Of a stretch of 64,000 bases of DNA, positions 11,646 to 49,987 are shown piece after piece; positions within the stretch are counted from its first letter, which is position 1, and every line of letters begins with the position of its first letter. The notes below the pieces were generated by a model. The model was not told where the DNA came from. It made no database searches and worked only from the letters and a program-made list of their open reading frames with translations. The stretch is taken from IMG/VR virus record IMGVR_UViG_3300044797_000094, positions 12,388 to 76,387 of that record; one strand, given 5' to 3'. The position numbers were made by a program, and so were the translations under genes. This DNA is from a virus.

Positions 11646-12593
11646 ATGCGGCCAATGAAAATCCTCGTCACCGGCGGAGCTGGCTACCTCGGGTCCGTGC
11701 TCGTAACGGATCTGCTGTATTCCGGATACGACGTCACAGTCCTGGATTTGTTCAAAGGCGATTCAAGCCGATCTTTGGTTGAATTGTGCGGATCGAAGGA
11801 AGTGCGGTTCACGCCGATCAAGGGGGATGTCCGCAACTTGACTGACCTCAGCGTCGCAATGGCTCGATGCGACATCCTAATTCCATTGGCGGCTATTGTT
11901 GGCGCTCCAGCATGCGAGGATGATTGGGGCGCGACCAGCACAAACCTCAGCGCCATCGAACAAATGATTGGATTGCGATCGCAGAGCCAGGCAATCCTTT
12001 TTCCATGCACAAACAGCGGCTACGGAATCAGCAGGCATCATGAAATCTGCGACGAAGAATCGCCACTGGCACCGATCAGTAAATATGGCAGATTGAAGGT
12101 AGCGGCCGAGAGGATCGTCTTGAATGACGGAAACAGCGTGACATTCCGCTTCGCCACCCTGTTCGGTTGTTCCCCTCGAATGCGACTGGATTTGCTCGTC
12201 AATGACTTCGTTTATCGGGCCGTGAAAGACCGGTCGATCATCGTGTTTGAGGGACACGCCAAGCGAAACTACTTGCACGTGCGAGATGCCTCAAGAGCCT
12301 TTCTCCACGCAATCGAAAACTTCGAAGCGATGGAAGGCCGCCCGTACAATGTGGGCCTGTCAGACGCGAACCTGTCCAAGCTGGAGTTGTGCGAGCGAAT
12401 CAAGCGACATGTGCCGGAACTGTTTTACAGCGAATCGCCGATTGGAGAAGATCCAGACAAGCGGGACTACGTCGTGTCGAACAAGCGAATTGAAGCGACT
12501 GGCTTCAAACCGAAGTATTCGCTGGACGATGGGATCAGGGAATTGATCAAGGCGTATTTGATGCTGGATGCCGCGAGATACAGGAACGCTTGA
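11646..12593 (+). CDS. NAD-dependent NDP-sugar epimerase/dehydratase
   Basis: TGGAGYLGS, LAAIVGAPAC, YGRLK. Confidence 0.9.
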   Translation: MRPMKILVTGGAGYLGSVLVTDLLYSGYDVTVLDLFKGDSSRSLVELCGSKEVRFTPIKGDVRNLTDLSVAMARCDILIPLAAIVGAPACEDDWGATSTNLSAIEQMIGLRSQSQAILFPCTNSGYGISRHHEICDEESPLAPISKYGRLKVAAERIVLNDGNSVTFRFATLFGCSPRMRLDLLVNDFVYRAVKDRSIIVFEGHAKRNYLHVRDASRAFLHAIENFEAMEGRPYNVGLSDANLSKLELCERIKRHVPELFYSESPIGEDPDKRDYVVSNKRIEATGFKPKYSLDDGIRELIKAYLMLDAARYRNA

Positions 12594-12769
12594 TGGAACG
12601 CTTCAATGAGCGAGCGATCTGGGTTGCAGCGTGCGGCATTCTCATCGTCTGCAATCTCTTGCTTCGTGCCGATCTCGGAAACACTCAACATGATTTACGG
12701 ATGGCGATTGAGCGTGAGCGAACATTGAATCGAATGTTGGACGTCATGATAGACAAGGACAATCGGTGA
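12593..12769 (+). CDS. Small membrane-anchored protein (58 aa, below the ORF-track cut-off)
   Basis: Manual translation MERFNERAIWVAACGILIVCNLLL...; overlaps both neighbours. Confidence 0.5.
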   Translation: MERFNERAIWVAACGILIVCNLLLRADLGNTQHDLRMAIERERTLNRMLDVMIDKDNR

Positions 12770-13986
12770 GCCTTACAAACTGCCGCATATGCGATTCCAC
12801 AAAACTGGATTTAATCCTCGATCTCGGCATGCAACCCTGGGCAAATCACTTTCTCAAGAAAGAGGAGTGTGGCACAGAACCGAAATATCCGCTTCGATTG
12901 GTTCGTTGCGACGAATGTTCGCTCGCTCAATTGGATTTCACCGTGCCGAAAGAAACGATGTTCGTCGATCACACGTATCTGAGCGGCACGACGAAATCTC
13001 TCGGCACCCATTTCAAGAAAGTTGCGGATGATGTGGTTGATCGATTCTTCGGACCGTACCCGCGAAATCGATCTGTTCTTGACATTGGATCGAACGACGG
13101 GACACAGCTCAGGAATTACAAGGAGAAGGGATGGCGAGTCCTGGGATGCGAACCGTGCAATAGCGCGGCGAAGATGGCGAACGATTCAGGAATTCCCACA
13201 TTGATCAATTTTTTCAGGGCCGGTTTTTCGGAGGCATGTGGGACATTTGACGTCATCAATGCTTCTGGCGTCCTGTTCCATTTGGAGGATCTTCATTCTG
13301 TCATGGAGGAAATTCGCCGAGCATTGAAGCCGCAGGGGATCTTCGTCGCCCAATTCCTCTACATGCCCAGCATCGTCGAAAACTGCGCCTTCGATCAAAT
13401 CTATCACGAACACTTGCTTTACTACACGATGAAGACGTTTTGCGACCTGATTGAACGACACGGACTACACTGCTTCGATGCTTATTTTTCGCCGATCCAC
13501 GGAGGGTCAATCGTCGCGTTCTGTGAGCACAAAAGCATCGACAATCTGACATCGTATCGGCTCGATCAATTGCGGGGCGGAGAAGAAGAAATTGGAGCGA
13601 ACATGAAAGAGACGTACGAAGGGTTCGCCAGGTCAGTGTTTGCGAAGCGACTTGAACAGAGGAAGCAATTAAACGGCTGGCGGATGCTGGACAAAAAGGT
13701 GTTCGGATTAGGCGCTCCGGTTAAAGGCAACACATTGCTGAATTACTGCCGAGTCGGGCCTGAATTGATCGAGTGTCTCGTCGAACGCAATTCGCTCCGT
13801 CGCGGACTCTGTGCCCCCGGCTCGCATATTCCTGTCGTGATGGAGGACGAACTGACGGAAGATCCAGACGTCTATTATGTTCTGGCGTGGAATTACAAGG
13901 GTGAGATTCTGGAACGGTACGAGGATAAGATCGAAGCGGGCGTCGAGTTTTACTTTCCGATCAATCCGAAAGGTGTCGCATCGTGA
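12766..13986 (+). CDS. NDP-sugar C-methyltransferase-like SAM-dependent methyltransferase
   Basis: CRIC Zn motif, LDIGSNDG, DQIYHEH, IHGGS, GAPVKGNTLLNY, LAWNY. Confidence 0.9.
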   Translation: MSLTNCRICDSTKLDLILDLGMQPWANHFLKKEECGTEPKYPLRLVRCDECSLAQLDFTVPKETMFVDHTYLSGTTKSLGTHFKKVADDVVDRFFGPYPRNRSVLDIGSNDGTQLRNYKEKGWRVLGCEPCNSAAKMANDSGIPTLINFFRAGFSEACGTFDVINASGVLFHLEDLHSVMEEIRRALKPQGIFVAQFLYMPSIVENCAFDQIYHEHLLYYTMKTFCDLIERHGLHCFDAYFSPIHGGSIVAFCEHKSIDNLTSYRLDQLRGGEEEIGANMKETYEGFARSVFAKRLEQRKQLNGWRMLDKKVFGLGAPVKGNTLLNYCRVGPELIECLVERNSLRRGLCAPGSHIPVVMEDELTEDPDVYYVLAWNYKGEILERYEDKIEAGVEFYFPINPKGVAS

Positions 13987-14264
13987 GAACAGCATTCAAG
14001 AGACCGTGGCCGAGCGATGCGGTCATCATCGTTTGCGCGTCGCCGGAAGACGCGAATCGAAGCAACATGTCGTCGATCCAGTCCGGAAAGTGTCGAGACT
14101 GCGGCGATGACATCCTGGTCGATGGAAAATCGATCGACTCGGGGATGCGGATGAATGAGCGATGTGGAAGACCGGTCGAATTCCTGTGTGTGGATTGCGC
14201 CGTTGAATACGACATGCATACGATCGAGAAACTGGTTGACCATCGAAAGAAATCCGGAACATGA
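13983..14264 (+). CDS. Small Zn-binding protein
   Basis: CRDC...CVDC; coupled overlaps. Confidence 0.55.
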   Translation: MRTAFKRPWPSDAVIIVCASPEDANRSNMSSIQSGKCRDCGDDILVDGKSIDSGMRMNERCGRPVEFLCVDCAVEYDMHTIEKLVDHRKKSGT

Positions 14265-15190
14265 ACATCTTCGTCACCGGCGCAACGGGCTTCCTTGGTC
14301 GTCATCTTTGCAGGCGATTAAGCAAGGACGGTCATCGAGTCGCCGAAATCGACTCTCATCAATGCGACCTCACAAAACCGATCGAGCAACAAATCAGACT
14401 TGGCTTCGACGTCGATGTGATCTTCCATCTGGCCGCGTGGACGCAGGCCGGGGACTTTTGCTTGCATCATCCCGGAGAACAATGGCTGATCAACCAAAAG
14501 ATCAACACGAACGTCCTGGACTGGTGGCGTCAGGAAAATCCAGAGGCGAAACTGATCTCGATCGGCAGCAGTTGCGCCTACGATCCAGATGGCGACATGC
14601 GTGAGGAAAACTATCTTCGAGGAACGCCGCACCACGACCTTTTCGCCTACGCGACGGCCAAACGAATGCTCCATGTAGGGCAACTCGCGATGGAGATCCA
14701 ATACGGGATGAAATCCCTGACGCTCGCCCCGGCGACGCTCTACGGCGTCGCTTATCACACGGACGAACGTCAGCCGCATTTTATCTTCGATATCGTCCGA
14801 AAGATTCTTAGAGGAAAACAGAATGCGGAACCTGTCATCCTCTGGGGCTCGGGCTTCCAAAAGCGGGACGCGATTCATGTGGGCGACTTCGTGGAAATCG
14901 CCGTCCAATGTCTTGGGACCTCGCCGTGCGGAATTTTGAACATCGGCCCAGGTTCCGCTTTGACGATCCGCGAATACGCTCGCGTCGTCTGCGATCTTAT
15001 TGGCTTTGAATCTGAAATGATTCAGTACGATCACGACGCTTATTCAGGCCAAAAATCAAAAATTCTGGACGTCGGTCGGCTTCGAAGAACGTTCCCTGGA
15101 TTTCTTAATACGCCGCTGAACATTGGACTTCAGCAGGTGATTGATTGGTACAAGGCTAATCCGCAACTCCTCGCGCCGAAAGGTGAGTGA
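14261..15190 (+). CDS. GDP-fucose-synthase-like epimerase/reductase
   Basis: TGATGFLG, HLAA, GSSCAY, YATAK, LWGSG..RD. Confidence 0.9.
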   Translation: MNIFVTGATGFLGRHLCRRLSKDGHRVAEIDSHQCDLTKPIEQQIRLGFDVDVIFHLAAWTQAGDFCLHHPGEQWLINQKINTNVLDWWRQENPEAKLISIGSSCAYDPDGDMREENYLRGTPHHDLFAYATAKRMLHVGQLAMEIQYGMKSLTLAPATLYGVAYHTDERQPHFIFDIVRKILRGKQNAEPVILWGSGFQKRDAIHVGDFVEIAVQCLGTSPCGILNIGPGSALTIREYARVVCDLIGFESEMIQYDHDAYSGQKSKILDVGRLRRTFPGFLNTPLNIGLQQVIDWYKANPQLLAPKGE

Positions 15191-15840
15191 TGTCAATCAT
15201 TGGAGCGTCAAGCCTACTCGCGGTAAACGTCGGCGATGATCACTGCTTCTATTGCGGCGACAAGGCTAATCGATCATTGAAAGTCTCCGACACATTTGCC
15301 GATGGCTGGTGCGTCGCGTATCCGCAGTCGAAAATGATGTGCTGCGGCTGTGAGATGAGCCTTGACGAAAAGATCGCGATTGCAGGCAAGGAAAAGCCAC
15401 AAAAGTTCCGCAATTATTCGTGGCATATAAGCCGATCAAAGGCAACCCCCATGACTAAGGCCAACAAGCGGGAGATGACGGGGCTGTTACTTGAGCCGCC
15501 GAGTGAGCCTTGGGCGTTCGCGATTGCCGAGAGCGGCCAGAAGCATCTCGTTTATCGAACACCAGCGAATCTCGGTGACGGGCCGTTCGTCGTTCGTCTT
15601 GAAGATGAACTCGTTGTGTACTCGCCTCGATCGCTGCGTGACAGAATTGATTTGTGCAGAGCTGTCGTGGCTGTCGTCGGCCATAAGGGCGCCAACGATT
15701 TCTCGGTGACGTCCGTGATCGCTCTCGGTTTAGAATTGGCGCTGCAATGGGAAGCGGTCTATCGAGAGCCATTAACACGCCTGGCGTTATTCGTAACGCC
15801 TGGGAAATCCGAGTGTGAAGAAATTGAGGATGACTTATGA
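15187..15840 (+). CDS. csf1: Type IV CRISPR large subunit Csf1 (Cas8-like)
   Basis: CFYCG..CCGC Zn finger; LLEPP.EPWAFAIAESGQKHL motif; first gene of the Csf cluster. Confidence 0.8.
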   Translation: MMSIIGASSLLAVNVGDDHCFYCGDKANRSLKVSDTFADGWCVAYPQSKMMCCGCEMSLDEKIAIAGKEKPQKFRNYSWHISRSKATPMTKANKREMTGLLLEPPSEPWAFAIAESGQKHLVYRTPANLGDGPFVVRLEDELVVYSPRSLRDRIDLCRAVVAVVGHKGANDFSVTSVIALGLELALQWEAVYREPLTRLALFVTPGKSECEEIEDDL

Positions 15841-16319
15841 TCAAGATTCTGGACTGTGCGGAGTATCGACGGCAGCTTGCTGGCCTGGCTGACGTCTCGG
15901 GGGGCGAAGATTCATTCGCCGACGAATACCGGGAGATGACGAGCGAATGCGTGTTGCTACTGGCGATCTGTTTCAATCGACGACAGCTTGAGGCGGTCAC
16001 GATCTGGAGTCGTATCGACGCGGCGATACAGAAGGGCCTCGCTGATTGCGACGGCGAGGACGTCGATCGATTCCTGTCAACGTGTCTGGAGCACGTCCTC
16101 GCGAATATCAGCGTCGTCGCATCACAACCGGACGCGATCAGAATTCAGCAGTCGATCCTGAAGCTGAGCGGCGACGAACGAGTCTATTTCCTCCAGTACC
16201 TCGCGAAGCATAGATACGTCGCCATCGTGCTCGGTCGAGAAAAGTGGGAGATGCGGAAGGCGGAAATCGCGGCGCAATTAAAGTCGCTCGACACGACGGA
16301 AACGGCGGTGTCCGAATGA
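15837..16319 (+). CDS. cas11: Type IV-B small helical subunit (Cas11-like)
   Basis: 160-aa helical protein between csf1 and csf2; positional inference. Confidence 0.6.
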   Translation: MIKILDCAEYRRQLAGLADVSGGEDSFADEYREMTSECVLLLAICFNRRQLEAVTIWSRIDAAIQKGLADCDGEDVDRFLSTCLEHVLANISVVASQPDAIRIQQSILKLSGDERVYFLQYLAKHRYVAIVLGREKWEMRKAEIAAQLKSLDTTETAVSE

Positions 16320-17170
16320 AGGTGTTCTGCGCATCGACAAACATTAGTCCGGTCAGTCATCAACTCGGAACCGTTGGCAACGAATCGATCGTGAATGTCG
16401 AGGACGTCCGAACGCCGCTGGGTTCGAGAAAAGTTCCGGTCCTCAGCGGGAACGCGATTCGGCATCGGATGATCAGGGCTCCCGGCGCGGATTATCTCAT
16501 TGACGCCCTGGGCCTTCATGGAAAGCTGTCGCGGGACGTTCTTAATCTTCTTTATCACGGAGGAATCAAACGAGAAAAAGGGAAAAGCCCATCGCTGGCG
16601 AGAATCGCGGATATGCATCGGTTGTTTCCGCTGCTGCGATTACTCGGTGCTTGCCTGCCGGAAGCGATCGTCGCCGGTGAACTCACGGCGCATCGAGCCA
16701 TGCTGGCGTGCCGAGAGAATCAGTCGCGGATCAATGCCATCGCTCCGAAAGGCTGGGAATTTGAAGGACACCTCGCGCCTGCGACGTCGTTCATCGAGAG
16801 GTGGCAATACGTGCGAGGCGTGATGAAGCATTCACTCGCGCATTCGGCCACTGACACGACCGACAAGGATGAATCGACAATGATGCCCTTCGCGGGAACG
16901 TGCGTGATTCCCGGAGCGGTCTGGGTTCATGGGTTCTCGATGTCGATATGTTCGCAAATTGAGTTCGGTTGCCTTTTGCATTGTCTGCGGAAATGGGATG
17001 CGGACGGTGCGACGATCGGCGGACAATCATCGCGAGGGCATGGTATTCTGCAATTGTCGATTTGGACAGACGCCGAGTTTGATCACGATGAATCGATATC
17101 AGCATACGAAGAGCACGTCGATGACAATAAGGGCGATTGCGTGGAATTTCTTCGAGGTTGCTATTCATGA
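16316..17170 (+). CDS. csf2: Type IV Cas7 backbone Csf2
   Basis: SPVSH, VPVLSGNAIRHRMIR, FPLLRLLG, G-loop IGGQSSRGHG. Confidence 0.85.
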   Translation: MKVFCASTNISPVSHQLGTVGNESIVNVEDVRTPLGSRKVPVLSGNAIRHRMIRAPGADYLIDALGLHGKLSRDVLNLLYHGGIKREKGKSPSLARIADMHRLFPLLRLLGACLPEAIVAGELTAHRAMLACRENQSRINAIAPKGWEFEGHLAPATSFIERWQYVRGVMKHSLAHSATDTTDKDESTMMPFAGTCVIPGAVWVHGFSMSICSQIEFGCLLHCLRKWDADGATIGGQSSRGHGILQLSIWTDAEFDHDESISAYEEHVDDNKGDCVEFLRGCYS

Positions 17171-17892
17171 GCCTGATTAAGTCGCCAAAGCACACGGCTT
17201 CGGACTTGACTGTCTGGCGCGAATTGGAATACGCGGATCGAGTCCATGCCAGGCATGGAGCGCTGCGAAGAAAATGGGACAGGTGCTTAAGTCTCGCGAA
17301 AGAATTCGCCGATGGTGGACCTTGTCACTGCTCGACGAGCTGGGGAAAGGACTCCGTGGTGACGGCATTCGCGGTAATGACTGTCGCTCCGAAAACTCCG
17401 CTGTGCTGGATCAGGGTAGAACCCGTCAAGTCGCCAGAATGCGTTCTTGTGCGAGACGTTTTTCTGAGGAGATTCCCGAAATGCGATTACCACGAGACCG
17501 AGGTCGTCTGCGAGAAAGATGAGGATGGATGGCATGCGACGGGAACGCTCGAAAAAGGAATCAAGATTCTTGATGAGCGATTCGGCCCGCGAACGATCCT
17601 CGGTATTCGAGCCGAAGAATCGTCTCACCGTTTCCTGAGTATCGCATCAAGCGGTTGCAACACGAAGAATAAATCGAGGCCGTGCGGATCGCTGACAGAG
17701 AAAGACGTCTTCGGATTGCTGAGCATGCACGATCTGCCGATCCATCCCGCATATGCGATGACCGGCGGCGGAAGGTGGCCCCGAGAACACTTACGGGTCG
17801 CGTCGCTCGGCGGAAAGCGTGGGCAGGGCTTCGGGCGGCTGGAATGGGAGCGTGAATATTACGCAGACGAACTTCGGAGGATTGGAGAATGA
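17167..17892 (+). CDS. CysH/PAPS-reductase-like protein of the type IV-B system
   Basis: PP-loop SWGKDS, GIRAEES..R, LPIHPAY. Confidence 0.85.
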   Translation: MSLIKSPKHTASDLTVWRELEYADRVHARHGALRRKWDRCLSLAKEFADGGPCHCSTSWGKDSVVTAFAVMTVAPKTPLCWIRVEPVKSPECVLVRDVFLRRFPKCDYHETEVVCEKDEDGWHATGTLEKGIKILDERFGPRTILGIRAEESSHRFLSIASSGCNTKNKSRPCGSLTEKDVFGLLSMHDLPIHPAYAMTGGGRWPREHLRVASLGGKRGQGFGRLEWEREYYADELRRIGE

Positions 17893-18602
17893 AGACGCGA
17901 TTCGTCAAGGTGACGGCGCACCTGATATCGCCAGTCGCGTTGTCACCGGAAGGCGAAGCCCCGCATCTGGACGCGATTTGTGAACTTGTTCTCGCTCAGC
18001 ACACGAGATCGATCGCGGCATCCTCCAACGGAAATCGGCATCTTCTCGACGTCGCCAAGATTCGTGGACAGGAAGTGTCAGCTCAGGGGCAATTGCCGAT
18101 ACCGATCGTGCGTGAGAAGGTCGATGGCATCCCGGTTCCGCGATGTTCGTTCGGCATCATGGAAAAGACTCAAGAAACCGCCGAGCATTACCACTGCGCG
18201 TTCCCGATTGAACGGGCGATTGAGGTCAGCGAGAAGGAGCGGATTCAGATCAGGACGACGGGCGGCGTCTACAAATCGGTCAGGTTGCCGCTGCGATTGT
18301 CGACGACATCGCGGATTGTCTGGTTCGCCGAACTGCGAGAATCCCCATGCAAATTGCGAAAACTCGTCAATCAAATAGAAACGCTCGGAAAGAAATCGGT
18401 GTACGGTTATGGGCGAGTTTCGGAATGGACCGTGGAAGAAACCGATATCGACGCAAGTTGGTTTCATGGCGGCGTGTTGATGCGTGCTCTCCCGATTTCA
18501 GTCGTGTCCGACGACATTCAGGGGAAGCGACGATCATACGGAGCTGTCGCAGGCCCGTATTGGCAGCGATCATTTTTTGTCGATCGATACGTCCCGTATT
18601 AA
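17889..18602 (+). CDS. csf3: Type IV Cas5-like Csf3
   Basis: SPV..PHLDAI, G-loop LGKKSVYGYGRVSEW, MRALP, PYW. Confidence 0.85.
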   Translation: MKTRFVKVTAHLISPVALSPEGEAPHLDAICELVLAQHTRSIAASSNGNRHLLDVAKIRGQEVSAQGQLPIPIVREKVDGIPVPRCSFGIMEKTQETAEHYHCAFPIERAIEVSEKERIQIRTTGGVYKSVRLPLRLSTTSRIVWFAELRESPCKLRKLVNQIETLGKKSVYGYGRVSEWTVEETDIDASWFHGGVLMRALPISVVSDDIQGKRRSYGAVAGPYWQRSFFVDRYVPY

Positions 18603-19586
18603 CTAAGCCCGATAAATAATCTCGCTTCCTTTTGCGTTGATACGTATCGGAACTTCGGGGCAGCCCGGCAAAGCCGCGACGACGGACGCTCGTTTCTCGG
18701 GCGGAACGATGAACAAAAGGAAGCCGCCGCCTCCGGCCCCGAGAAGCTTTCCGCCCCATGCTCCGTGGCGAATCGCCGTTTCATAGAATTCGTCGATCTT
18801 TCCGCTTGAGATCCCGTCATCAAGCGTTTTCTTGCGAATCCATGTTTGATGCATGAGTGTTCCGAATTGATAAAACTCGCCGCCACGTAAAGCCGCCGCT
18901 CCGACGTCGACACATTCGTAAAGCTCTCGCAGAGTTGAAAGATTGTCGCCGATCTTGTCAATCTGCTTCGCGGCGATATCGCTCGCCCGCCTTCGGACGC
19001 CGGTGTAAACAAAAAGCAGATGCGACTCAAAATTGCGGATCAAATCGTCCGACAGATTCAGTGGATGAATGGAAAACTGTTCATGACCGCCAAATCGGAC
19101 GACATTCAGTCCGCCGTGCGATGCGGTAATCTGATCCTGATAGCCGACAGATTCACGGAGCGTCGTTCGCTCCACGTCAATCGCACATTCGGCAAGTCGA
19201 TGATTGCCGCCGACAATTCCGAGAAGGCCCCAAATCGTTCTCAGGAGCCCAACGACGAAGCTGGATGATGATCCAGTCCCGGAGAAGCTCGGCAAGTCGG
19301 CATGAAGGCTAAATTCGAGCCCGGACCGCAATCCGTGGAACTTGAGGATCTCGCGAAATGGCGTGTGTTCCATTTCCTCAAGTTCCTTCACGAGTTCGAC
19401 CTTGGAATAGGCGATGCGAAGCTTGTAGTCGAAAAGTTCCGGATTGAATCGACTCGCGGAAATGAAAATCGATTTGTCAATCGCCGTGGCGAGAACAGCG
19501 CCAGGTCCGTACTTCTCGAAATATTCCGGATAATCCGTTCCTCCGCCAAAAAAGCTGATCCGAAATGGAGTGCGAGAGATGATCAC
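18603..19586 (-). CDS. hddA: GHMP kinase, D-glycero-alpha-D-manno-heptose-7-phosphate kinase-like
   Basis: RTPFRISFFGGGTD, GTGSSSSF, GYQDQ, GGKLLGAGGGGF. Confidence 0.85.
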   Translation of the reverse strand: MIISRTPFRISFFGGGTDYPEYFEKYGPGAVLATAIDKSIFISASRFNPELFDYKLRIAYSKVELVKELEEMEHTPFREILKFHGLRSGLEFSLHADLPSFSGTGSSSSFVVGLLRTIWGLLGIVGGNHRLAECAIDVERTTLRESVGYQDQITASHGGLNVVRFGGHEQFSIHPLNLSDDLIRNFESHLLFVYTGVRRRASDIAAKQIDKIGDNLSTLRELYECVDVGAAALRGGEFYQFGTLMHQTWIRKKTLDDGISSGKIDEFYETAIRHGAWGGKLLGAGGGGFLLFIVPPEKRASVVAALPGCPEVPIRINAKGSEIIYRA

Positions 19587-20344: not shown

Positions 20345-20381
20345 AAATCAGCGACTTTCGGAATAATTGTCGATTTGGAAT

Positions 20382-20429: not shown

Positions 20430-20494
20430 CTCTTTTAACGCATCGCAACGAAATCGTGGTGACGGATGCGGATTCTAAACAAAGGAGAGACGAA

Positions 20495-21241: not shown

Positions 21242-21310
21242 AGTCAATTCAACGTGGCCTCGTGTGATGTGAGGCCGCTCTTTCTGGTTGAAAACATTTT
21301 GGAGAATTCG

Positions 21311-38396: not shown

Positions 38397-38412
38397 TACG
38401 ATGGCATGAATA

Positions 38413-41360: not shown

Positions 41361-41530
41361 GGGTGCAGTCCCTTCAACCATTCAATCCATTATGTGGATC
41401 TAACGTCGTGTTTTTAAGACGAGAAACGCTGCCACAGCAAATGCCGGTGGCATGCATGACCTGCATCACCCCGTCGACGCCGCCGCCGGCGTCGTCCAGC
41501 AGCGACTCTTCAAGCGGCTCCAGCAGCTAA
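41357..41530 (+). CDS. 57-aa FxPLC mini-protein with Ser tail
   Basis: MRVQSLQPFNPLCGS...TLP...CMTC...SSSSDSSSGSSS; ATGA overlap. Confidence 0.6.
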   Translation: MRVQSLQPFNPLCGSNVVFLRRETLPQQMPVACMTCITPSTPPPASSSSDSSSGSSS

Positions 41531-41544
41531 AGCGGCGTCGGAAG

Positions 41545-42630: not shown

Positions 42631-42633
42631 TCC

Positions 42634-42813
42634 ATGAGAATCGTGTCAGAGTCAGGATTCAGTCCTCTTTGCAACTCGCTCTTGATTGTGCAAGACCGGA
42701 GCACATTGCCGACGACGCCCTACGGACTAGGCGGACCATTATTTCCCGCCGGATGCTATATTTGTCTTGTTCCCGTTTCCACTTCAAGTAGCTCGGGAAG
42801 CAGCAGTTCATGA
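42634..42813 (+). CDS. 59-aa FxPLC mini-protein with Ser tail (not in ORF track)
   Basis: Manual translation MRIVSESGFSPLCNS...TLP...CYIC...STSSSSGSSSS; ATGA overlap with the glycosyltransferase. Confidence 0.65.
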   Translation: MRIVSESGFSPLCNSLLIVQDRSTLPTTPYGLGGPLFPAGCYICLVPVSTSSSSGSSSS

Positions 42814-43913
42814 ACCGCTATTTCGATCGCACAGTCGTCATTAATCTTCAGCGGCGTCCAGACAGACGGTCGCAGATTCTTGACGAATTCAAAAAAGGCT
42901 GGCCGTTCGCTGATCCGACGTTCTTCAACGCGATCGATGGCAGGAAACTTATGTGCCCCGTTGGATTCAACGAAGGAAACTTCGCATGGGCGTGTTTTCA
43001 GTCGTTTCGGAGAGTTGTGGAGTTGGCGGTCAATGATGGAATTGAATCGCTTTTGATCCTTGAAGATGACGCCGTTCTGTGCGAAAACTTCTCTGAAAAA
43101 GCCTCGGCGTTCATGGCCGACGTTCCCGAAGATTGGGACTTCGTCTGGTTCGGCGGCCATCACATGAACACTCCGAAATTCGTGAAGCCGGGTTACATGC
43201 AATCCGTCCACATGGATCGCAACCACGGATTCGGTGTGCGCGGCAAAGCATTGAAGGAACTCTATCGCTATTGGCATCAATGGCACGTCGGCCATTGCGA
43301 CTGGGCGATAAGCCAATGGGTTTCGAGGTGGCGTTCGTATTGCCCTGAAGGCGACTGGCTCATCGGCCAACGCGGCGGCTGGTCGGACATCAAATTCCAG
43401 AACAAGCCGCAGGAATGGTGGAACGCAAGCGGGTACGTTCCGCCGCCGATTCCGAATCCAATACGAAGCGGAATGCCATTTGTTCCGGGTCGTCGTCAAT
43501 TTGTTGGCAAAATTATTCCAGGGGTTGTGATCATGGAAGGCGTCGGAAGAGAAGTTGAAAAGATCCTGAAATCGTTCGGCGTGGCAATGCCGATATGCGG
43601 CGAGTGCAGGCTGTGGATCGATCGCATGAATAAATGGGGGCCAGATGGCTGCGAACAAAATCGCGAGGAGATCCTCAAGCGGCTCCGTCAACACGCGGTC
43701 GCACTGAACATCCGCGATAAATTGCGTATGGGAATCGGCGCGTTCTATACTGGTTTCTGGCGAAAGGTCCGCTGGTACGATCCCGCTCCCGGAATTCTTG
43801 ATGAGGCGATTCGAATTGTGAAAGAACGCGAATCCAAGATTGTGACGGATCAGGACTTCGTTTCGTCCATGCTGACGAAGGCCGGAGTTCCGATAGAACT
43901 TGCGGAGAAATGA
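42810..43913 (+). CDS. GT25-like glycosyltransferase with C-terminal Cys domain
   Basis: VINLQRRPDR, AIDG, ILEDDA, PEDWDFVWFGG. Confidence 0.8.
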   Translation: MNRYFDRTVVINLQRRPDRRSQILDEFKKGWPFADPTFFNAIDGRKLMCPVGFNEGNFAWACFQSFRRVVELAVNDGIESLLILEDDAVLCENFSEKASAFMADVPEDWDFVWFGGHHMNTPKFVKPGYMQSVHMDRNHGFGVRGKALKELYRYWHQWHVGHCDWAISQWVSRWRSYCPEGDWLIGQRGGWSDIKFQNKPQEWWNASGYVPPPIPNPIRSGMPFVPGRRQFVGKIIPGVVIMEGVGREVEKILKSFGVAMPICGECRLWIDRMNKWGPDGCEQNREEILKRLRQHAVALNIRDKLRMGIGAFYTGFWRKVRWYDPAPGILDEAIRIVKERESKIVTDQDFVSSMLTKAGVPIELAEK

Positions 43914-43920
43914 ACTGGCG

Positions 43921-44059
43921 TTGATTTTTTACTCACCTTCATTCATCATTCGTCTCGCAAGTCGAATCCAGCGACTTTACAATGAGAACGCACCGGATTT
44001 ATTTCCGTCGCGGCCCAAAGTGAACTGCTGGATTCAGTTTGCCGCGGGCTTTTTCTTTT
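43921..44059 (+). promoter_or_regulatory. Promoter plus kissing-loop attenuator-like leader
   Basis: TTGATT-N17-CATCAT; complementary hairpin loops AATCCAG and CTGGATT; CGCGGC/GCCGCG stem with T tract. Confidence 0.55.
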
Positions 44060-44448
44060 GATGGGCTCGCGTAACTGAGAAAAGAGGCCAGTTATGTTTC
44101 AGAGAACTTTGCACGTTAAAAGAACTCTGCGGGTTCAGCCCCGAATGGATGCGATTCAAATCTCTCGCAGTAAGCTCCGATCGACGAAAGGTATGTTCCG
44201 CATCATGCGGTTTTCCTGGGAACGGGTTGGTAGTTGATCCAACACAAGAGCGACGTCCAGGTCCATATCCGAAAGAAACAAAAACGACCACATTAAGTTG
44301 ACCGAAGCTTTTTACCATAGCACGCCTCTGATTGTGCGAGATCCTTTCTGGACGTTGGCGAAAGCCTTATTCGGAGGGGATGCTCTTTTGACTTGAGGCG
44401 AATCGCATGCAACAATCCTGACCGACATTTACTCATGAGGAGCTTGAT

Positions 44449-46092
44449 TTGGCTGATCTTCTGAATACTTTCCAGCGTGTTGTCGTCATCAATCTTTCCC
44501 GCCGCATCGACCGTAAGGAATCGGTCACGAAAGAACTGGCGAACTGGCCCTTTAAGCAGCCGATCTTCCAAGTCGGCGTCGACGGAGAAATGGTCACCGC
44601 TCCTGATGGATTCCGAGAAGGCAACAATGTCTGGGGTTGTCTGCAAAGCCACAGGCACGCCTTGGAAGACGCTCTGAACAACGATTGCGACTCATTGCTC
44701 GTCCTGGAGGACGACGTCGTCCTATGCCCCGATTTCAACGCCATGGCGGAACAGTTCATTTCTGAAATGCCGGAAGACTGGGAAATCTGCTTTCTTGGCG
44801 GCCACCATATGGTTTCTCCGATGGATCTGTCGGAAAACGTCGTCCGATGTGTTCAGATGGACCGCTGTCACGCTTATGCGCTGAAGGGACGCGGACTTCG
44901 GGAACTTTACCGATATTGGCACCAATGGCATCCAGGCCATTGTGACCACGCAATTTCGAAATGGGTCGCGGACTACAAAGCCTATGCGCCGAAAAGCTGG
45001 CTGATCGGCCAAAAAGGCGGCTACAGCGACATTCTGCGGGACAACGACGAGCAACTGTTGAAGGGCGAGGAATGGTGGAATCCGGGAACGCCAATTCCGT
45101 TAGACCGAGTCGCTCGATCGATCAACGATCTGCCCTGCAAATTTCGCGGAGAATTCGCTGGCGTTCGCGACGTTTATACGCCGATGTGGAAATGCTCCGA
45201 AGAATCGAACAAACTCGGCCTGACGACGTTCTGGCAGTACAAACTGGATCAGCCGGAATTCAATTGTTCGAGTTGCGATAAGCGACCGAGAACACCAGAG
45301 GAAATCCGGTTCGACGAAATCAAAATTGCATGGAAGAATCGCAAGGAAGTCAAAACATCGGAGAAGCCGATCCTGACGGCCGCTTTGCCCACAAGGGGCA
45401 GGGGCGAGCAATGCAAGAAATCAATCCAATCGTTCTACGAAACAACCAGGGGCCACGATCGGGAATGCGTCGTGGTAAGTCATCCAGACTCCGCCGTGCC
45501 GATTCTACGCGAAATGGAACTCCGTCAAGACCTGTATCCGGGACTGCGGGTGTTTGTTGAAGACACAGACGCGATCTCGGCATGGAACATCGCGTTCAAG
45601 CATTCGCGTGGGTTTTTCATTTCGATCTCGGACGATGACCTTGAATACGCATTTGGATGGTTTGAAGCACTATTAAAGAAGTGGGAAGGATACGGCGGAC
45701 CGGAGGTTGCGCTTCTGGGCCTGTGGGATCCAGACGCGCGCGTTCAACGCGGGGAATTGTTCACGAGGTCCGTCCTGACGAGGCCGTTTTGCATGACGGT
45801 CATGGGGGGCGTTCTTTGCGTGCCGTATGTCAAAAGGTGGTGGAACGATAACAGCACCACTCTCCTCGCGCGGAAGGCCAATTGTGCGTATCCGTGTTTT
45901 GAGGCGGTGATCAAGCATCATCAAGCGGCGCTCGGGCTTAGTGTCTGGGATGAAACAGCGGAGATCGGAAAACAACGCGGCATCAACGACCAGAGACTGT
46001 TTGAGGAATGGAAGGCGCGTGGAGCGAAGATTGAATGGAAGTCTATATTCGATGAAGCAAATCAAACACAGTTGACGGGAGCCGAGCGCTGA
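44449..46092 (+). CDS. Bifunctional glycosyltransferase (GT25-like plus GT2-like)
   Basis: VINLSRRIDR, CLQSH, VLEDD; second domain LPTRGR, AWN, SDDD, WWND. Confidence 0.8.
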   Translation: MADLLNTFQRVVVINLSRRIDRKESVTKELANWPFKQPIFQVGVDGEMVTAPDGFREGNNVWGCLQSHRHALEDALNNDCDSLLVLEDDVVLCPDFNAMAEQFISEMPEDWEICFLGGHHMVSPMDLSENVVRCVQMDRCHAYALKGRGLRELYRYWHQWHPGHCDHAISKWVADYKAYAPKSWLIGQKGGYSDILRDNDEQLLKGEEWWNPGTPIPLDRVARSINDLPCKFRGEFAGVRDVYTPMWKCSEESNKLGLTTFWQYKLDQPEFNCSSCDKRPRTPEEIRFDEIKIAWKNRKEVKTSEKPILTAALPTRGRGEQCKKSIQSFYETTRGHDRECVVVSHPDSAVPILREMELRQDLYPGLRVFVEDTDAISAWNIAFKHSRGFFISISDDDLEYAFGWFEALLKKWEGYGGPEVALLGLWDPDARVQRGELFTRSVLTRPFCMTVMGGVLCVPYVKRWWNDNSTTLLARKANCAYPCFEAVIKHHQAALGLSVWDETAEIGKQRGINDQRLFEEWKARGAKIEWKSIFDEANQTQLTGAER

Positions 46093-46391
46093 CGACAACC
46101 TTCTGCCTCGATTTCGACAATACATATACGAAAGACCCGATCATTTGGATGCTGTTCGTTCAGCGAGCGCAGCTCTTCGGTCATCGCGTAATTTGCATCA
46201 CGAGCCGGACAAATCCGAACAAGAGCCTTGTCACAGATGAATTGCCGTCCGGGGTCGATGCTTATTTTGCATTGAATGTTCCAAAGAAACAATTCGCCGA
46301 AACTCTTGGAATCAAAGTCGACGTCTGGATCGACGACGATCCAAAAACAATCGATCCGGCGAGTTATGAAGGGAGAATTGAAAATTCTTGA
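46089..46391 (+). CDS. Minimal HAD-family phosphatase-like protein
   Basis: LDFDNTY (upstream of the track start), ITSR, WIDDDP; probable CTG start. Confidence 0.65.
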   Translation: MTTTFCLDFDNTYTKDPIIWMLFVQRAQLFGHRVICITSRTNPNKSLVTDELPSGVDAYFALNVPKKQFAETLGIKVDVWIDDDPKTIDPASYEGRIENS

Positions 46392-46593
46392 AGTCATCGC
46401 CTGTGGTGAAAAGGTCTCGATCGGAGCCGATGGCCTAATTACCGGCACGATCACAGCATTCAGTTGCCGCTTCGGCAGGATTCAATACGAGGTCACGTGG
46501 TGGAGCGGAGCGGATCATAAAACCGAATGGCTTGAAGAATGTGAAGTCATCCCACAAACCCATGTCACAACGCGAATCGGCTTCAAGAGATGA
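46378..46593 (+). CDS. Hypothetical protein
   Basis: QYEVTWW...EWL...RIGF; GGGAG RBS. Confidence 0.55.
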   Translation: MKILEVIACGEKVSIGADGLITGTITAFSCRFGRIQYEVTWWSGADHKTEWLEECEVIPQTHVTTRIGFKR

Positions 46594-46603
46594 TCGGAAG
46601 TTA

Positions 46604-46753
46604 ATGAGAGGTCTAATTTTCGTATTCGGATGTTTGCTATTCTGGACGTGCGTCGGATGGTGCATCGAAGGGACTCTTGGCGGCGCTGTCGGCGGATTCA
46701 CGTTTGGACTCGGAGTTATGCTATTATTCGTCTTCTGCTTCGCCGGAAAGTGA
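46604..46753 (+). CDS. Small two-TM membrane protein
   Basis: Two hydrophobic stretches. Confidence 0.45.
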   Translation: MRGLIFVFGCLLFWTCVGWCIEGTLGGAVGGFTFGLGVMLLFVFCFAGK

Positions 46754-46940
46754 AATCCGATGTCCGCCAAGATGGCTCAGTCGCCGCCATGCAAAACATG
46801 CGGGAAGCTACCGAAAATGAATTGGAAATGGGACAACCGGATTTGCGAGTATCTGCCAGCGCCGATCAAATGCGCGTGCTACGATAAGCCAACCGAAAAC
46901 AGCCCGCGGACGACGTCGCCAGCGTTACCGAAGTGATTCG

Positions 46941-48056
46941 ATGCGTAAAAAGCTGCTCTTCATTTCGCGATACGTCCTTGACGAGCCGTGCGCAACCGGG
47001 CGAACGATCATTGACTTAATCCAATATTGCCAATCACTCAGCTTCAACGTCACCTTCCTGAATCTCGCAAGCTCGCCGTCATTCGATCTTGAGGCCGCGC
47101 TCACTTGCAATGTGATTTCCGCTGGACTGGGGACAAGATTTTACGACTCTCCATCGACAGACACGGAACGCGATTTCGTTCGCGACACATTTCAGCGGAT
47201 CGAACCGTCGATTGTGATCACGGACTATGCATGGACGGCGGGTAACTTTGATCTGCTGCCTGGATTTGTCGAAAAGATGATTCTCGTTCACGATCTCAGA
47301 ACGCGGATTGTTTCTGGCCTTGAATCGCACGGACATTCGCACGCTCATCATCCGTGGAACAAATCGACCGAGAGCTTTTATCTTCAGAAGGCCGACGCGA
47401 TTATCGTCCTGAATGAGGAAGATGCCGACGAATGCCGGGAAATGGCACAATTCGCGAACGTCCTTCAAATCGGACTGTCATCTGATTTGCGTTTCTCTGG
47501 TGGCTCCTCAGTCGTTCCGGGTCGCGTTCTTTACGTGGCGTCGAGCTTCGGAGCAAATAAGGAAGCGATCGAACGGTTCGTTATCGACTGCTGGCCAACG
47601 ATTCGGAATCGCATTCCAAACGCGACCCTCCACATCTGCGGCGGGGTGTCTGACAGAGTAAATGGCGAGATCGCGAGTGAGAGCAACGGCGTCTTTTTGA
47701 GAGGCCGTGTCGACGACATTGACACGGAACACATCGAAGCCGCGGTCTGCATTGTGCCAATTCGTCACGTCGGCACGAAACGCAAATTTGCGGATGCGTT
47801 GGCACACGGAAAAGCTGTCGTCTCAACGAAAGTCGGCATCGATGGATTTCCGGAAGCGTATGAAAAATGTGCCTTAATCGCTGACGATATCGGCGAACAG
47901 TTTGCGGATCATGTGGCCAATGTGTTATCGTCCGACGAACTTCGGCACTCATTGGAAAACGAAGCGAGAGCATTGGCGGAGAAGCGGCTTCCGCCTGAAA
48001 ATGCCTACAGGAACCTCGTCGAACATTTCAAAATGAAAAGCCTTTTGGAAACATAG
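46941..48056 (+). CDS. GT4-like (GT-B) glycosyltransferase
   Basis: LVHDL, LRGRVDD, IVPI..GTKRKFADALAHGKAVVST. Confidence 0.8.
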   Translation: MRKKLLFISRYVLDEPCATGRTIIDLIQYCQSLSFNVTFLNLASSPSFDLEAALTCNVISAGLGTRFYDSPSTDTERDFVRDTFQRIEPSIVITDYAWTAGNFDLLPGFVEKMILVHDLRTRIVSGLESHGHSHAHHPWNKSTESFYLQKADAIIVLNEEDADECREMAQFANVLQIGLSSDLRFSGGSSVVPGRVLYVASSFGANKEAIERFVIDCWPTIRNRIPNATLHICGGVSDRVNGEIASESNGVFLRGRVDDIDTEHIEAAVCIVPIRHVGTKRKFADALAHGKAVVSTKVGIDGFPEAYEKCALIADDIGEQFADHVANVLSSDELRHSLENEARALAEKRLPPENAYRNLVEHFKMKSLLET

Positions 48057-48057
48057 A

Positions 48058-49164
48058 ATGCCTAAATCGGTCATGTTCGTCTCCCGCTATCTCGCTGAAT
48101 CAAACAACGGAAGCGGCGAAATGAACCTCGGCTTTATTCGCTACCTCAAGCGAATTGGATTCGACGTCACCTTTCTGCTTCTCGGCGGTTCCCGCGCGGT
48201 CGGGGAGGAATTGAAGTCGCTCTGCACGATGATGGCCGGAAACCAAGACGCTCCCTATTACGATTCGCCGGTCACGGACGGAGAAAGGCGAGTCATCCGG
48301 TGGGCCGTCGAAAAGATCAATCCGCAGATCGTGGTCGCCGATTATTCGTGGATTGCCGGATGCCTTGACGAAGTTCCGTCGACCGTTGAAAAGATGATCC
48401 TCGTTCACGATCTTCGAACCCGCATCATCGCCGACTTTGAAAAGGAAGGTTTCTTTCACTGCCATCATCCGTGGGACGAGCGGCAGGAATCGGAGTGCCT
48501 CCGAAAAGCCTCAACGATCATCGCGATTCAGGACAAGGACGCGGATGAGTGCCGCAGGATGGCTCCTGAGGCGAAGATCATCCAGATCAACCTGTCTGCG
48601 GAACTGAAGTTCTCCGACGAATCGTTAGTCGTTCAAGGTCGAGTGTTCTATGTGGCTTCTGGAGTCGACGAAAACAAAATTGCGATTGAGCGATTCATTG
48701 ACAACTGTTGGCCGAAAATTCGGAGTGAGGCCACGAACGCAAGCCTTCATATCGCCGGCGGTGTCTGCGGGCGACTTCAGATCGCTCACGATTCAGGGAT
48801 CTCGCTTCTCGGATATGTGCCGGATCTCGATCAAGAATACGCCGAAGCAGCGGTGTGCATCGTGCCAGTCTTTCACGGAGGAGGAACGAAACTGAAGTTC
48901 ATCGGCGGACTCTCGCACGGAAAGGCGATGGTCGGGAACAGTTTCGCAATCGACGGTTTCCCGACGGCGGAGCAGTGCCTGTGTGTGTGCGACGGCATCG
49001 CGGAGGAATTCGCCAATTCAGTGATCATGCTGCTTCAAATGCCAGACATACGAGAAGCGGCGCGGGTCTTCGCGCAACACATCGCCAGCGAGACTCTTCC
49101 GATGGAAATCGCCTACAAAAATCTGACCGACCATTTCCAGTCAAAAGGCTTCGCCGATGCGTGA
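48058..49164 (+). CDS. GT4-like glycosyltransferase, paralogue of the previous gene
   Basis: Shared VEKMILVHDLRTRI and HHPW; GGGTKLK. Confidence 0.8.
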   Translation: MPKSVMFVSRYLAESNNGSGEMNLGFIRYLKRIGFDVTFLLLGGSRAVGEELKSLCTMMAGNQDAPYYDSPVTDGERRVIRWAVEKINPQIVVADYSWIAGCLDEVPSTVEKMILVHDLRTRIIADFEKEGFFHCHHPWDERQESECLRKASTIIAIQDKDADECRRMAPEAKIIQINLSAELKFSDESLVVQGRVFYVASGVDENKIAIERFIDNCWPKIRSEATNASLHIAGGVCGRLQIAHDSGISLLGYVPDLDQEYAEAAVCIVPVFHGGGTKLKFIGGLSHGKAMVGNSFAIDGFPTAEQCLCVCDGIAEEFANSVIMLLQMPDIREAARVFAQHIASETLPMEIAYKNLTDHFQSKGFADA

Positions 49165-49987
49165 GAAAATCATCATCGCCGGCGCATCTGGGTATATCGG
49201 CGAGTTCTTAAGCCGTCGATTGTCGCAAGATGGGCATAAAATAAAACCTCTGGACAGGACCCACGGATGCGACATCAGAAACAAGCAAAACGTCGCGAAT
49301 CTATTCGCTGATTTCATGCCAACTGTCGTTATTGATTGCTTGGATTTCGGAACACTGAAAGAGGTGCAAGAAAACCAAGAAAAGGCATCGTCCGTAATAG
49401 TCGGCGGCGCAAATACTTTGGCGGGGCTCGCGAAGATCCACGATGCGTACATCATTCAAATGTCGACGTCCTATGTATTCGCGGGGAACGGCATCAAACA
49501 CAATGAATTTGACACGCCGAAACCATTCAACGCCTACGCGGCACTCAAGCTCATCGCGGAATCGGCGTGTCACAAATCCGGCCTGATTCTCCGCATGAGC
49601 GGCGTCTACGGCTATAAGCGAGAAAAAAGCGACAATCTTGATTTATGGGCAATCTCCGAATGGAAAAAAGGAAGCATCATCAAGGCGTTTGAACTCTACT
49701 ATTCGACGCCGACATTCATAGGCGATTTGGCGGATGTGGTTTCCAACGCCATCAAGTCGCGTGCAACTGATCTTTATCATGTCGCCGGACCGGACCGTAT
49801 GAACCGCTACGATTTCTTCCTCAAACTCGCCGAACGAATGGGTCACGACTGGACATGCGTCGTTCCGAGCCGCGAAATTGACGGCTTGCGGCCATTGGAC
49901 GGCTCGCTTGACTCAAGTCTCGTCCAGCGGGAACTTGGCGTAGAAATGCACGATGTCAGGGACGGGATGCTGCTGGCGGATTACTGA
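49157..49987 (+). CDS. rmlD: dTDP-4-dehydrorhamnose reductase-like SDR
   Basis: GASGYIG, STSYVFAG, YAALK, TPT, RP..GSLD. Confidence 0.75.
   Translation: MREKIIIAGASGYIGEFLSRRLSQDGHKIKPLDRTHGCDIRNKQNVANLFADFMPTVVIDCLDFGTLKEVQENQEKASSVIVGGANTLAGLAKIHDAYIIQMSTSYVFAGNGIKHNEFDTPKPFNAYAALKLIAESACHKSGLILRMSGVYGYKREKSDNLDLWAISEWKKGSIIKAFELYYSTPTFIGDLADVVSNAIKSRATDLYHVAGPDRMNRYDFFLKLAERMGHDWTCVVPSREIDGLRPLDGSLDSSLVQRELGVEMHDVRDGMLLADY

Follow-up and report, generated by a model that had tools for sequence, protein, structure and literature searches.

Genes for a candidate virion glycosylation pathway with a predicted methyl-branched heptose in a peat-associated viral record

A single viral record of 76,387 bp (IMG/VR record IMGVR_UViG_3300044797_000094) carries two sugar loci that may form one pathway for glycosylating the phage particle. 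The analysed window, bases 12388–76387 of this record (64,000 nucleotides; positions below are those of the window), holds a donor-sugar locus in the head region (locus 1, 11646–20344) and a group of glycosyltransferase (GT) genes at the end of the tail part (locus 2, 42810–49987), a gene order that agrees with an original prediction of donor synthesis among head genes and transferases beside tail genes. As the best explanation, we propose that cytoplasmic O-glycosylation modifies serine runs of tail-tip proteins with a glycan that includes a methyl-branched heptose made by the phage; for the whole chain of steps, we put this slightly short of an even chance. The proposal builds on family-level identities of the genes, a bacterial five-gene counterpart of locus 1 and a recurrent adjacency between genes for GT25-family glycosyltransferases and genes for proteins with polyserine (poly-Ser) tracts.

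All genes named in the original prediction were recovered in Pfam, NCBIfam and PDB searches, with corrections. The plus strand of locus 1 begins with a short-chain dehydrogenase/reductase (SDR) gene (11646–12593) whose product is 53% identical over its full length (residues 4–314) to PDB 6VO6/6VO8 (335 bits, 3e-99) and conserves the catalytic Y147-x3-K151, with Y147 and K151 invariant in the alignment. We take 6VO6 to be the guanosine diphosphate (GDP)-heptose C4-dehydrogenase Cj1427 of Campylobacter jejuni, which makes the phage SDR a candidate for the same activity. Enzymes of the Cj1427 type oxidize C4 with alpha-ketoglutarate as co-substrate. Downstream lies a sugar 3-C-methyltransferase gene of the TylC3/TcaB9/MtmC type (12766–13986), which exceeds the cut-offs of PF08421 (Methyltransf_13; 72.7 bits against 31.3), PF08484 (Methyltransf_14; 136 against 23.5) and PF13489 (Methyltransf_23; 66.8 against 27). 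Its product combines a Zn-binding N-domain, an S-adenosylmethionine (SAM) domain and a C-terminal C-methyltransferase domain, and its PDB matches are limited to 3-C-methyltransferases of nucleoside diphosphate (NDP)-4-keto sugars, led by the D-mycarose enzyme 4RV9 (9e-68) and followed by TcaB9 and 5T64, in line with the C-methyltransferase predicted earlier. The third gene (14261–15190) encodes a GDP-fucose-synthase-like (Fcl-like) C4 reductase, possibly also an epimerase, which keeps the GSSC and YxxxK motifs and matches NCBIfam GDPFucSynFcl (113 bits against a cut-off of 500) and GDP-L-fucose synthases in the PDB (2e-23). Both of the epimerase/reductases originally proposed are thus present, the first now placed as a C4-dehydrogenase-type relative of 6VO6 and the second as Fcl-like.

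Two minus-strand genes complete the set. The first encodes an HddA-like heptose-7-phosphate kinase of the GHMP type (18603–19601) with the motif GTGSSSS, a best NCBIfam match to GlMnHpPKinHddA (144 bits against a cut-off of 600) and PDB matches to WcbL (4USK/4USM, 7e-41), a C. jejuni enzyme (4N3O, 6e-38) and a Bacteroides enzyme (down to 4e-33). The second encodes an HddC/ManC-like sugar-1-phosphate guanylyltransferase (19583–20344) with a GGKGTR motif, a Pfam NTP_transferase match (77 bits) and NCBIfam matches to Man1P-GTase (104 bits, below its cut-off) and HddC (79 bits against a cut-off of 300); its best PDB match is Yersinia HddC (5XHW/6JQ8, '6-deoxy-D-mannoheptose pathway protein', 2e-21). 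The nearest structures of both are GDP-heptose pathway enzymes, consistent with the HddA/HddC-like enzymes of the original prediction. Two small plus-strand open reading frames (ORFs) are wedged between the SDR, methyltransferase and reductase genes. One (12590–12769), of 59 aa with a single hydrophobic segment, overlaps the genes on either side by 4 nt and has no family match; the other (13983–14264), of 93 aa with a CxxC...CxxC pattern, fills the gap between methyltransferase and reductase, with its start and stop overlapping its neighbours. Neither has a counterpart in the bacterial cassettes described below.

The capsular GDP-heptose pathway of C. jejuni comprises GmhA, HddA, GmhB and HddC, together with the C4-dehydrogenase Cj1427, the epimerase Cj1430 and the C4-reductase Cj1428 (PMC10680097, which describes the function of Cj1427). 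The phage shares with it an HddA-like kinase, an HddC-like guanylyltransferase, an SDR 53% identical to the presumed Cj1427 structure, a GDP-fucose-synthase-type C4 reductase and the general logic of oxidizing C4, editing the sugar and reducing it again. By contrast, the phage has no GmhA, cupin-type C3/C5 epimerase or canonical GmhB, and inserts between oxidation and reduction a 3-C-methyltransferase, for which nothing comparable is described in the C. jejuni pathway; its genes are carried by a phage and probably serve to glycosylate a protein, not a capsule. The methyltransferase resembles MtmC/TylC3, TcaB9 and KijD1 in its three-domain architecture and in acting, as we predict, beside a 4-keto group ahead of reduction. 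However, the known 3-C-methyltransferases work on deoxythymidine diphosphate (dTDP)-2,6-dideoxy or amino sugars in antibiotic pathways, whereas the partners of the phage enzyme point to a GDP-4-keto-heptose that keeps its 6-OH.

We regard a heptose pathway as the likely identity of locus 1, and favour, with less assurance, a methyl branch at C3 of the heptose. On the most economical chemistry, GDP-heptose would pass through its 4-keto form, 3-C-methylation and C4 reduction to give GDP-3-C-methyl-heptose. A deoxysugar was considered as product and rejected: the SDR is of the C4-dehydrogenase and not the 4,6-dehydratase type, and there is no other dehydratase. With no 4,6-dehydratase indicated, a deoxysugar is not expected. 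Hence, of the methylated heptose or deoxysugar first suggested, the heptose gains from the enzyme relatives and gene neighbourhoods and the deoxysugar drops out. We know of no described 3-C-methyl-heptose, and a literature search found no description of one. For the virenose of Coxiella, a GDP route has been proposed (PMC3539893).

Relatives of the donor genes occur in bacteria and in other viruses. Homologues of the SDR (48–60% identity) were found in 53 of 401 sampled Verrucomicrobiota genomes, and an HddA- and/or HddC-like gene lies within 10 kb of the SDR homologue in 18 of the 20 loci fetched. In two Verrucomicrobiota genomes, the homologues of all five phage sugar genes are contiguous (L042:5594–10453 in G185 and L047:8470–13493 in G179), forming a cassette of Cj1427-like SDR, HddC-like, HddA-like, 3-C-methyltransferase and Fcl-like genes with 50–57% identity to the phage for SDR, methyltransferase and reductase. 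This cassette is a candidate bacterial pathway to 3-C-methyl-heptose. The L042 copy adjoins a Wzx-type flippase gene, a GT4 gene and RmlA/B/D-like genes; from such neighbourhoods we infer that the cassette is a surface-polysaccharide module that the phage took up and rearranged. The phage glycosyltransferase, RmlD-like and HAD-like genes have no counterparts beside the bacterial five-gene cassettes. In IMG/VR, at least 502 viral contigs encode a relative of the SDR (>50% identity). An HddA-like kinase is encoded on 55 of the best 80 of these contigs (L059–L138), and HddA- and/or HddC-like genes lie within 10 kb of the SDR in 55 of the best 80 viral loci, indicating that phage-borne heptose editing is widespread in metagenomes. 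The viral SDR relatives sit in sugar-editing islands with radical SAM/B12 enzymes, DegT-type aminotransferases, thiamine pyrophosphate enzymes, methyltransferases, GT2 and GT10, and two of the contigs (L137 and L138) also encode a 3-C-methyltransferase. Heptose and lipopolysaccharide (LPS) sugar genes have been noted in the literature as viral auxiliary genes.

The candidate acceptors are encoded immediately before locus 2, where Ser-rich tail genes had been predicted and are indeed found. If poly-Ser is defined as 8 or more Ser among 12 residues, the window has only three real genes that qualify, all on the plus strand and no more than 2.6 kb upstream of the first GT25 gene. The largest encodes a 356-aa tail protein (40290–41360; 17% Ser) with poly-Ser between Cys pairs, and in its C-terminal part it shares 41% identity with an ORF that precedes GT25 in a related metagenomic locus (L021). 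The other two encode proteins of 57 aa (41357–41530, joined to the upstream gene by an ATGA overlap) and 59 aa (42634–42813, the stop codon of which overlaps the GT25 start), each consisting of a Cys-containing N-terminal module (N-module) and a C-terminal poly-Ser tail. Between them lies a plus-strand gene (41545–42630) for a 361-aa Cys-rich protein that also starts with the N-module, a candidate receptor-binding or tip protein with no family or Atlas match. Start–stop coupling runs from the tail genes on into GT25. Both AGY and TCN codons encode the serine runs, so selection acts on these at the protein level. The N-module spans about 45 residues with three conserved Cys, one followed by CxxC-[IL]-x-P; besides heading the three window genes (41357–41530, 41545–42630 and 42634–42813), it recurs in the related metagenomic loci L020 and L021 (L020:376–1656 and L021:3895–4095), where poly-Ser comes after it. 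No family was found for it. Its reading as a lipoprotein signal (PLC motif) was rejected, as there is no hydrophobic signal segment and the residues before the Cys are wrong. Ahead of the serine-tract genes and after a 799-aa tape-measure-like gene, the plus strand encodes a baseplate-hub/Tal-like tail protein (38413–40293) with weak Atlas structure matches to gpD/VgrG/baseplate V proteins (TM-score 0.39–0.47). PHROGs returned no match for the tail-tip proteins and most of the poly-Ser proteins.

Locus 2, all on the plus strand, begins with two GT25 genes, one of them fused to GT2 as originally predicted. The first (GT25a, 42810–43913) encodes a GT25 domain (PF01755, 41.1 bits against a cut-off of 24) followed by a Cys-containing C-terminal domain. 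The second (44449–46092) scores 35.6 bits for PF01755 (same cut-off) and 31.1 bits for PF00535; its GT25 domain is 48% identical to that of the first, and the same GT25–GT2 fusion was found in L020 and P0006. The GT25 family includes the LPS galactosyl- and glucosyltransferases Lic2A/LgtB, COLGALT1 and mimivirus R655. Like these, the phage proteins exceed the PF01755 cut-off and have an EDD motif (E85-D86-D87), which is invariant in the subfamily, and the subfamily profile reaches in the PDB only procollagen galactosyltransferase 1 (COLGALT1, 2e-11), which glycosylates protein side chains, and mimivirus R655. Unlike them, they form part of a subfamily that is specific to phages and has Cys-rich extensions at the N- or C-terminus as well as fusions to GT2, and the acceptor would be Ser, not hydroxylysine or the LPS core. 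Two GT4-type paralogues follow, GT4a (46941–48056; PF13692, 60 bits) and GT4b (48058–49164; PF13692, 51.6 bits), which are 46% identical to each other and correspond to the predicted pair. The sole PDB match of GT4a, a marginal one, is SdgB, a Ser-Asp-repeat glycosylating enzyme (E = 0.0015), and Pfam reported no DUF1975 in either paralogue. Near the C-terminus, a conserved G-T-K-x-K-F-x-[D/G] stretch ends in Asp in GT4a and Gly in GT4b; if this site corresponds to the acidic residue with which GT4 enzymes bind the nucleotide, GT4b might serve as a partner without catalytic activity, by analogy with GtfB and GtfA. None of the phage glycosyltransferases has a transmembrane segment. Single-protein scans of IMG/VR with a 626-aa tail protein, GT25a or the GT4a/b alignment retrieved no relatives.

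The locus ends with an RmlD-like NDP-4-keto-sugar reductase gene (49157–49987; PF04321, 125 bits; TIGR01214, 123 bits against a cut-off of 224; PDB 2GGS, 3e-25) that retains YxxxK and matches the RmlD originally assigned. The HAD phosphatase assigned alongside it needs more caution. An ORF of about 100 aa (46089–46391), a candidate heptose-bisphosphate phosphatase, shares all four HAD motifs with three homologues of 89–96 aa (DFDNT for DxDxT, ITSR for T/S, K, and WIDDD for DD), but it has no Pfam or NCBIfam match, and its fold model is weak (pLDDT, the predicted local distance difference test, of 66; best match the small minimal protein 2OBB, E = 0.02). It lies in the −1 frame relative to the GT25–GT2 gene and has no ATG, GTG or TTG before motif I. 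The homologues have a Met six residues ahead of the first Asp; the phage ORF has an ACG codon at that place, and its lone start-like codon is a CTG overlapping the TGA of the GT25–GT2 gene. Non-canonical initiation, re-initiation or a very recent loss of the start codon could account for this.

The adjacency of GT25 and poly-Ser genes recurs elsewhere. A GT25 homologue profile led, in searches of IMG/VR, genomes and metagenomes, to 16 viral loci, 2 genomic ones and 3 metagenomic ones, from which we obtained 18 independent loci with upstream sequence, the identical pair L010/L011 counting once. Eight of the 18, among them L002, L006, L010/L011, L012, L014, L020 and L021, have at least one poly-Ser ORF immediately before GT25 on the same strand. 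Within the same loci, poly-Ser was found in 10 of 72 ORFs up to 3 kb upstream of GT25, as opposed to none of 310 elsewhere (Fisher 3e-8; in this ORF tally L010 and L011 are duplicates, and the greedy ORF caller missed the L002 ORF). The background amounts to 3 of 1,567 ORFs in 80 unrelated viral loci, all of one family, and 0 of 391 in bacterial loci. Widening the acceptor definition to Ser plus Thr added no loci. The closest loci, L020 and L021, repeat the design of the window, with an N-module protein, a 66-aa serine-tailed protein, poly-Ser and then GT25 genes, and a GT25–GT2 fusion. GT25 neighbourhoods on these contigs contain capsid, portal, protease, tube, minor-tail, tail-lysozyme and amidase genes; GT25 comes after the capsid gene in both L007 and L008, and the capsid homologues of these two loci have no Ser/Thr tail. 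We think it fairly probable that GT25 acts on the poly-Ser proteins. The virion-protein glycan of the original prediction thus gains from the placement of GT25 in structural modules and from the poly-Ser adjacency, the basis being comparative genomics. As separate observations, the poly-Ser protein upstream of GT25 on a 184-kb viral contig (L010:8560–9735) weakly matches tail-fibre PHROGs, one GT25 neighbourhood encodes an Erv1/Alr sulfhydryl oxidase, and others encode sulfotransferase or FKRP-stem domains.

We propose the following route, in which the chemistry of each step, the choice of acceptor and the joint working of the two loci are all predictions. Host GmhA would make D-glycero-D-manno-heptose 7-phosphate, the HddA-like kinase would phosphorylate C1, and either the minimal HAD-like protein or host GmhB would take off the 7-phosphate. 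The SDR would then oxidize C4, the TylC3-type enzyme would transfer a methyl group from SAM onto C3, and the Fcl-like reductase would reduce C4 to give GDP-3-C-methyl-heptose; the RmlD-like reductase of locus 2 may provide a second outcome at C4. GT25 would start the glycan on the poly-Ser tracts of the 356-aa protein and on both serine-tailed proteins of 57–59 aa, and the GT25–GT2 fusion and the two GT4 paralogues would extend it, at least one of them using the heptose donor. As soluble enzymes, the glycosyltransferases would act in the cytoplasm, either while the particles assemble or beforehand. The weakest link is the coupling between the loci, for which we hold the odds to be evenly divided. 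It is suggested by their complementary gene content, since locus 1 has no phosphatase and locus 2 has a phosphatase-like gene, and since locus 2 has a lone 4-keto reductase and no nearby enzyme that makes a 4-keto sugar. The record holds no other sugar-nucleotide pathway.

Several points weigh against this proposal. For the kinase, the nucleotidyltransferase and both the Fcl-like and the RmlD-like protein, scores fall short of the NCBIfam equivalog cut-offs, and such scores do not fix the exact specificity of the locus 1 enzymes; that 6VO6 is Cj1427 is our presumption. GmhA (SIS_2 match) was not found in the whole 76-kb record, estimated to be ~72% complete, and family scans of its ORFs returned no flippase, polymerase, integrase or base-hydroxymethylase families, bearing out the lack of GmhA, flippase and polymerase already stated in the original prediction. 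However, GmhA-like genes are present but unlinked in the bacterial genomes with the cassette; the lack of one in the phage is therefore no obstacle if the host has its own, and the host could plausibly supply this step. In the HAD-like gene a canonical start is missing, and the fold model is weak. The serine-tract proteins match no recognised structural family and are placed in the virion by gene position, and in roughly half of the GT25 loci a poly-Ser ORF is lacking. Heptose genes occur in none of the other GT25 loci and GT25 in none of the 80 heptose-gene viral loci, so the two loci do not travel together elsewhere. Moreover, the bacterial five-gene cassette sits in a Wzx-type surface-polysaccharide locus, and the glycan itself is a prediction from the genes.

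One alternative, which we judge unlikely, is remodelling of the host surface. A modified GDP-heptose would be made from host heptose phosphate, and peripheral glycosyltransferases, helped by host flippase and polymerase, would alter LPS, capsule or a lipid-linked glycan and thus block superinfection or stop progeny from sticking to debris; the poly-Ser tracts would be flexible fibre linkers. This would suit the Verrucomicrobiota cassette, which is set in a polysaccharide locus that also encodes GT4 and a Wzx-type flippase, and the at least 502 viral contigs with the SDR in large sugar-gene islands without GT25. GT25, GT2 and GT4 are classical families of LPS and capsular polysaccharide synthesis, and Gtr-type phage systems, which seroconvert the host or modify its O-antigen, comprise a membrane flippase (GtrA), a bactoprenol GT, an integral-membrane, serotype-specific GT and a lysogeny module. 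Glycosyltransferase and LPS sugar genes next to the tail-fibre genes of pelagimyophages have been interpreted as host-surface modification (PMC7029224). The ORFs of the present record, however, include no flippase, polymerase, initiating phosphoglycosyltransferase, Gtr-type gene or, in this incomplete record, integrase, and the glycosyltransferases differ from the Gtr type in having no transmembrane segment. Surface remodelling also gives no reason for the placement of poly-Ser ORFs immediately before GT25 in many unrelated phages, and their near absence elsewhere, or for the coupling of the gene for the serine-tailed 59-aa protein, by its stop codon, to the GT25 start.

The failure of the two gene sets to occur together in the other loci examined would instead be explained by two independent systems, with locus 2 glycosylating the poly-Ser tail proteins from ordinary host uridine diphosphate (UDP) sugars and locus 1 being a separately acquired auxiliary cassette. 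GT25 enzymes usually take UDP-Gal or UDP-Glc, as this alternative would have it. Locus 1 is also not contiguous: positions 15187–18602 hold a plus-strand, type IV-B Cas-like cassette of ~3.4 kb (csf1, cas11-like, csf2, cysH-like and csf3-like genes; TIGR03114 Csf1, 3e-14; TIGR03115 Csf2, 2e-9; a weak PAPS_reduct match for the cysH-like gene, 7e-4). The Cas-like genes overlap each other and the Fcl-like gene by 4 nt, and the last of them adjoins the hddA-like gene, which is convergent with it; no CRISPR array was seen. The cassette interrupts the sugar locus and, as far as shown, stands outside the glycan pathway. The plus-strand genes of locus 1 are thus translationally coupled to Cas-like genes and to no glycosyltransferase, and locus 1 might act on the host glycan pool or otherwise, possibly tied to the type IV-B genes. 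Nevertheless, the phosphatase-like gene and the lone 4-keto-sugar reductase of locus 2 need a sugar-nucleotide pathway such as locus 1, the only one in the record, and we give the two-system alternative a low probability. Hypermodification of DNA, in which the glycosyltransferases would place a heptose-containing glycan on hydroxymethylated phage bases, is very improbable. Phage glycosyltransferases that hypermodify DNA are known (cited in PMC12619734), and the record is only ~72% complete, but its scanned ORFs contain no dCMP/dUMP hydroxymethylase, thymidylate-synthase-like, TET/JBP or DNA methyltransferase family, and the glycosyltransferase genes lie in structural modules and not in the replication module. 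Of the two alternatives raised in the original prediction, host-surface modification is therefore a live rival and DNA modification has no supporting gene.

To our knowledge, glycosylation of phage particles has been demonstrated experimentally in only a few mycobacteriophages. In Che8, Corndog and Myrna, mass spectrometry located glycans on the C-termini of capsid and tail-tube subunits (Freeman et al. 2023, as given in PMC12363180 and PMC12619734). The proposed pathway resembles theirs in that the phage's structural proteins are believed to be modified by its own glycosyltransferases within the cytoplasm. It differs in its candidate acceptors, tail-tip proteins and two mini-proteins with poly-Ser; in its enzymes, which are GT25, GT2 and GT4; and in having its own donor sugar, where the mycobacteriophage systems so described have no self-made donor. 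Because neither the capsid (25566–26951) nor the tube-like protein (32052–32915) has a Ser-rich C-terminus, the acceptor here would differ from the mycobacteriophage type. Long serine-based acceptor repeats and paired GT4-type paralogues are also features of the glycoprotein systems of Gram-positive bacteria for serine-rich-repeat proteins (GtfA/GtfB) and Ser-Asp-repeat proteins (SdgA/SdgB) (PMC8561734). By contrast with these, the phage GT4 proteins have no DUF1975 insertion reported by Pfam and resemble SdgB only marginally, there is no accessory Sec system, and it is GT25 and not GT4 that is repeatedly found next to poly-Ser in phages.

What would be new is a single package, in a phage of a very different host, of a donor pathway, five glycosyltransferase domains and serine-run acceptors. 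If the proposal is right, the scope of virion glycosylation widens to include tail-tip proteins and, as a new enzyme family, GT25; glycosyltransferases beside environmental tail-fibre genes, usually read as modifying host O-antigen, gain a biochemical explanation; and a route to a branched heptose extends the known toolbox of GDP-heptose editing. Glycan-coated receptor-binding parts would bear on host range, particle stability and antibody recognition, and every step can be tested with recombinant proteins, with no need for phage culture. A bolder version, which we offer only tentatively and as a whole, is that the undescribed sugar GDP-3-C-methyl-heptose would be built into mucin-like glycans on tail-tip serine runs, including 'mini-mucins' of 57–59 aa in which a conserved Cys-containing docking or recognition module carries a poly-Ser tail; GT25 would then be a widespread family of phage Ser-O-glycosyltransferases, and in many environmental phages the glycosyltransferases encoded next to tail fibres would have the virion, not the host, as their target.

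The record is classed as linear. The stretch is present in two peat DNA metagenome runs from two studies, one of which may be its source; fragments in the second run are identical to it, with zero differences, and no RNA sequencing runs with this stretch are listed. The host is probably a peat bacterium of the PVC (Planctomycetes–Verrucomicrobia–Chlamydiae) type, and the head gene has no near or protein-level match in a phage GenBank collection. The head part runs from terminase through a GH123-like protein, a portal fusion protein, topoisomerase IB, GNAT and a MuF-like protein to locus 1, followed by the capsid genes, a head-tail adaptor, the tube-like protein, the tape-measure-like gene and the tail-tip genes, and then by locus 2, DnaB and a Ro60-like gene. 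Scans for promoters and terminators at 33–52.5 kb gave signals no better than shuffled sequence, and the two sugar loci have no Rfam matches. In or near the head-gene region are genes for a GH123 N-terminal-domain protein, a class-3 lipase and a GNAT acetyltransferase (L001:8884–10680 and L001:1719–2339, in record bases before the window, and window 9391–9972). Between locus 1 and the capsid genes, a 277-aa protein (21254–22087) with no family match has a core in which a Cys-Ser-[Asp/Gly/Arg] tripeptide is repeated ~41 times in tandem; the underlying DNA repeat has a 9-bp unit (21414–21781, 90% matches). Finally, a tRNA match in Rfam (59688–59754; 30 bits, just over the gathering score) lies immediately 5' of the Ro60 (TROVE-vWA) gene (59928–61559).

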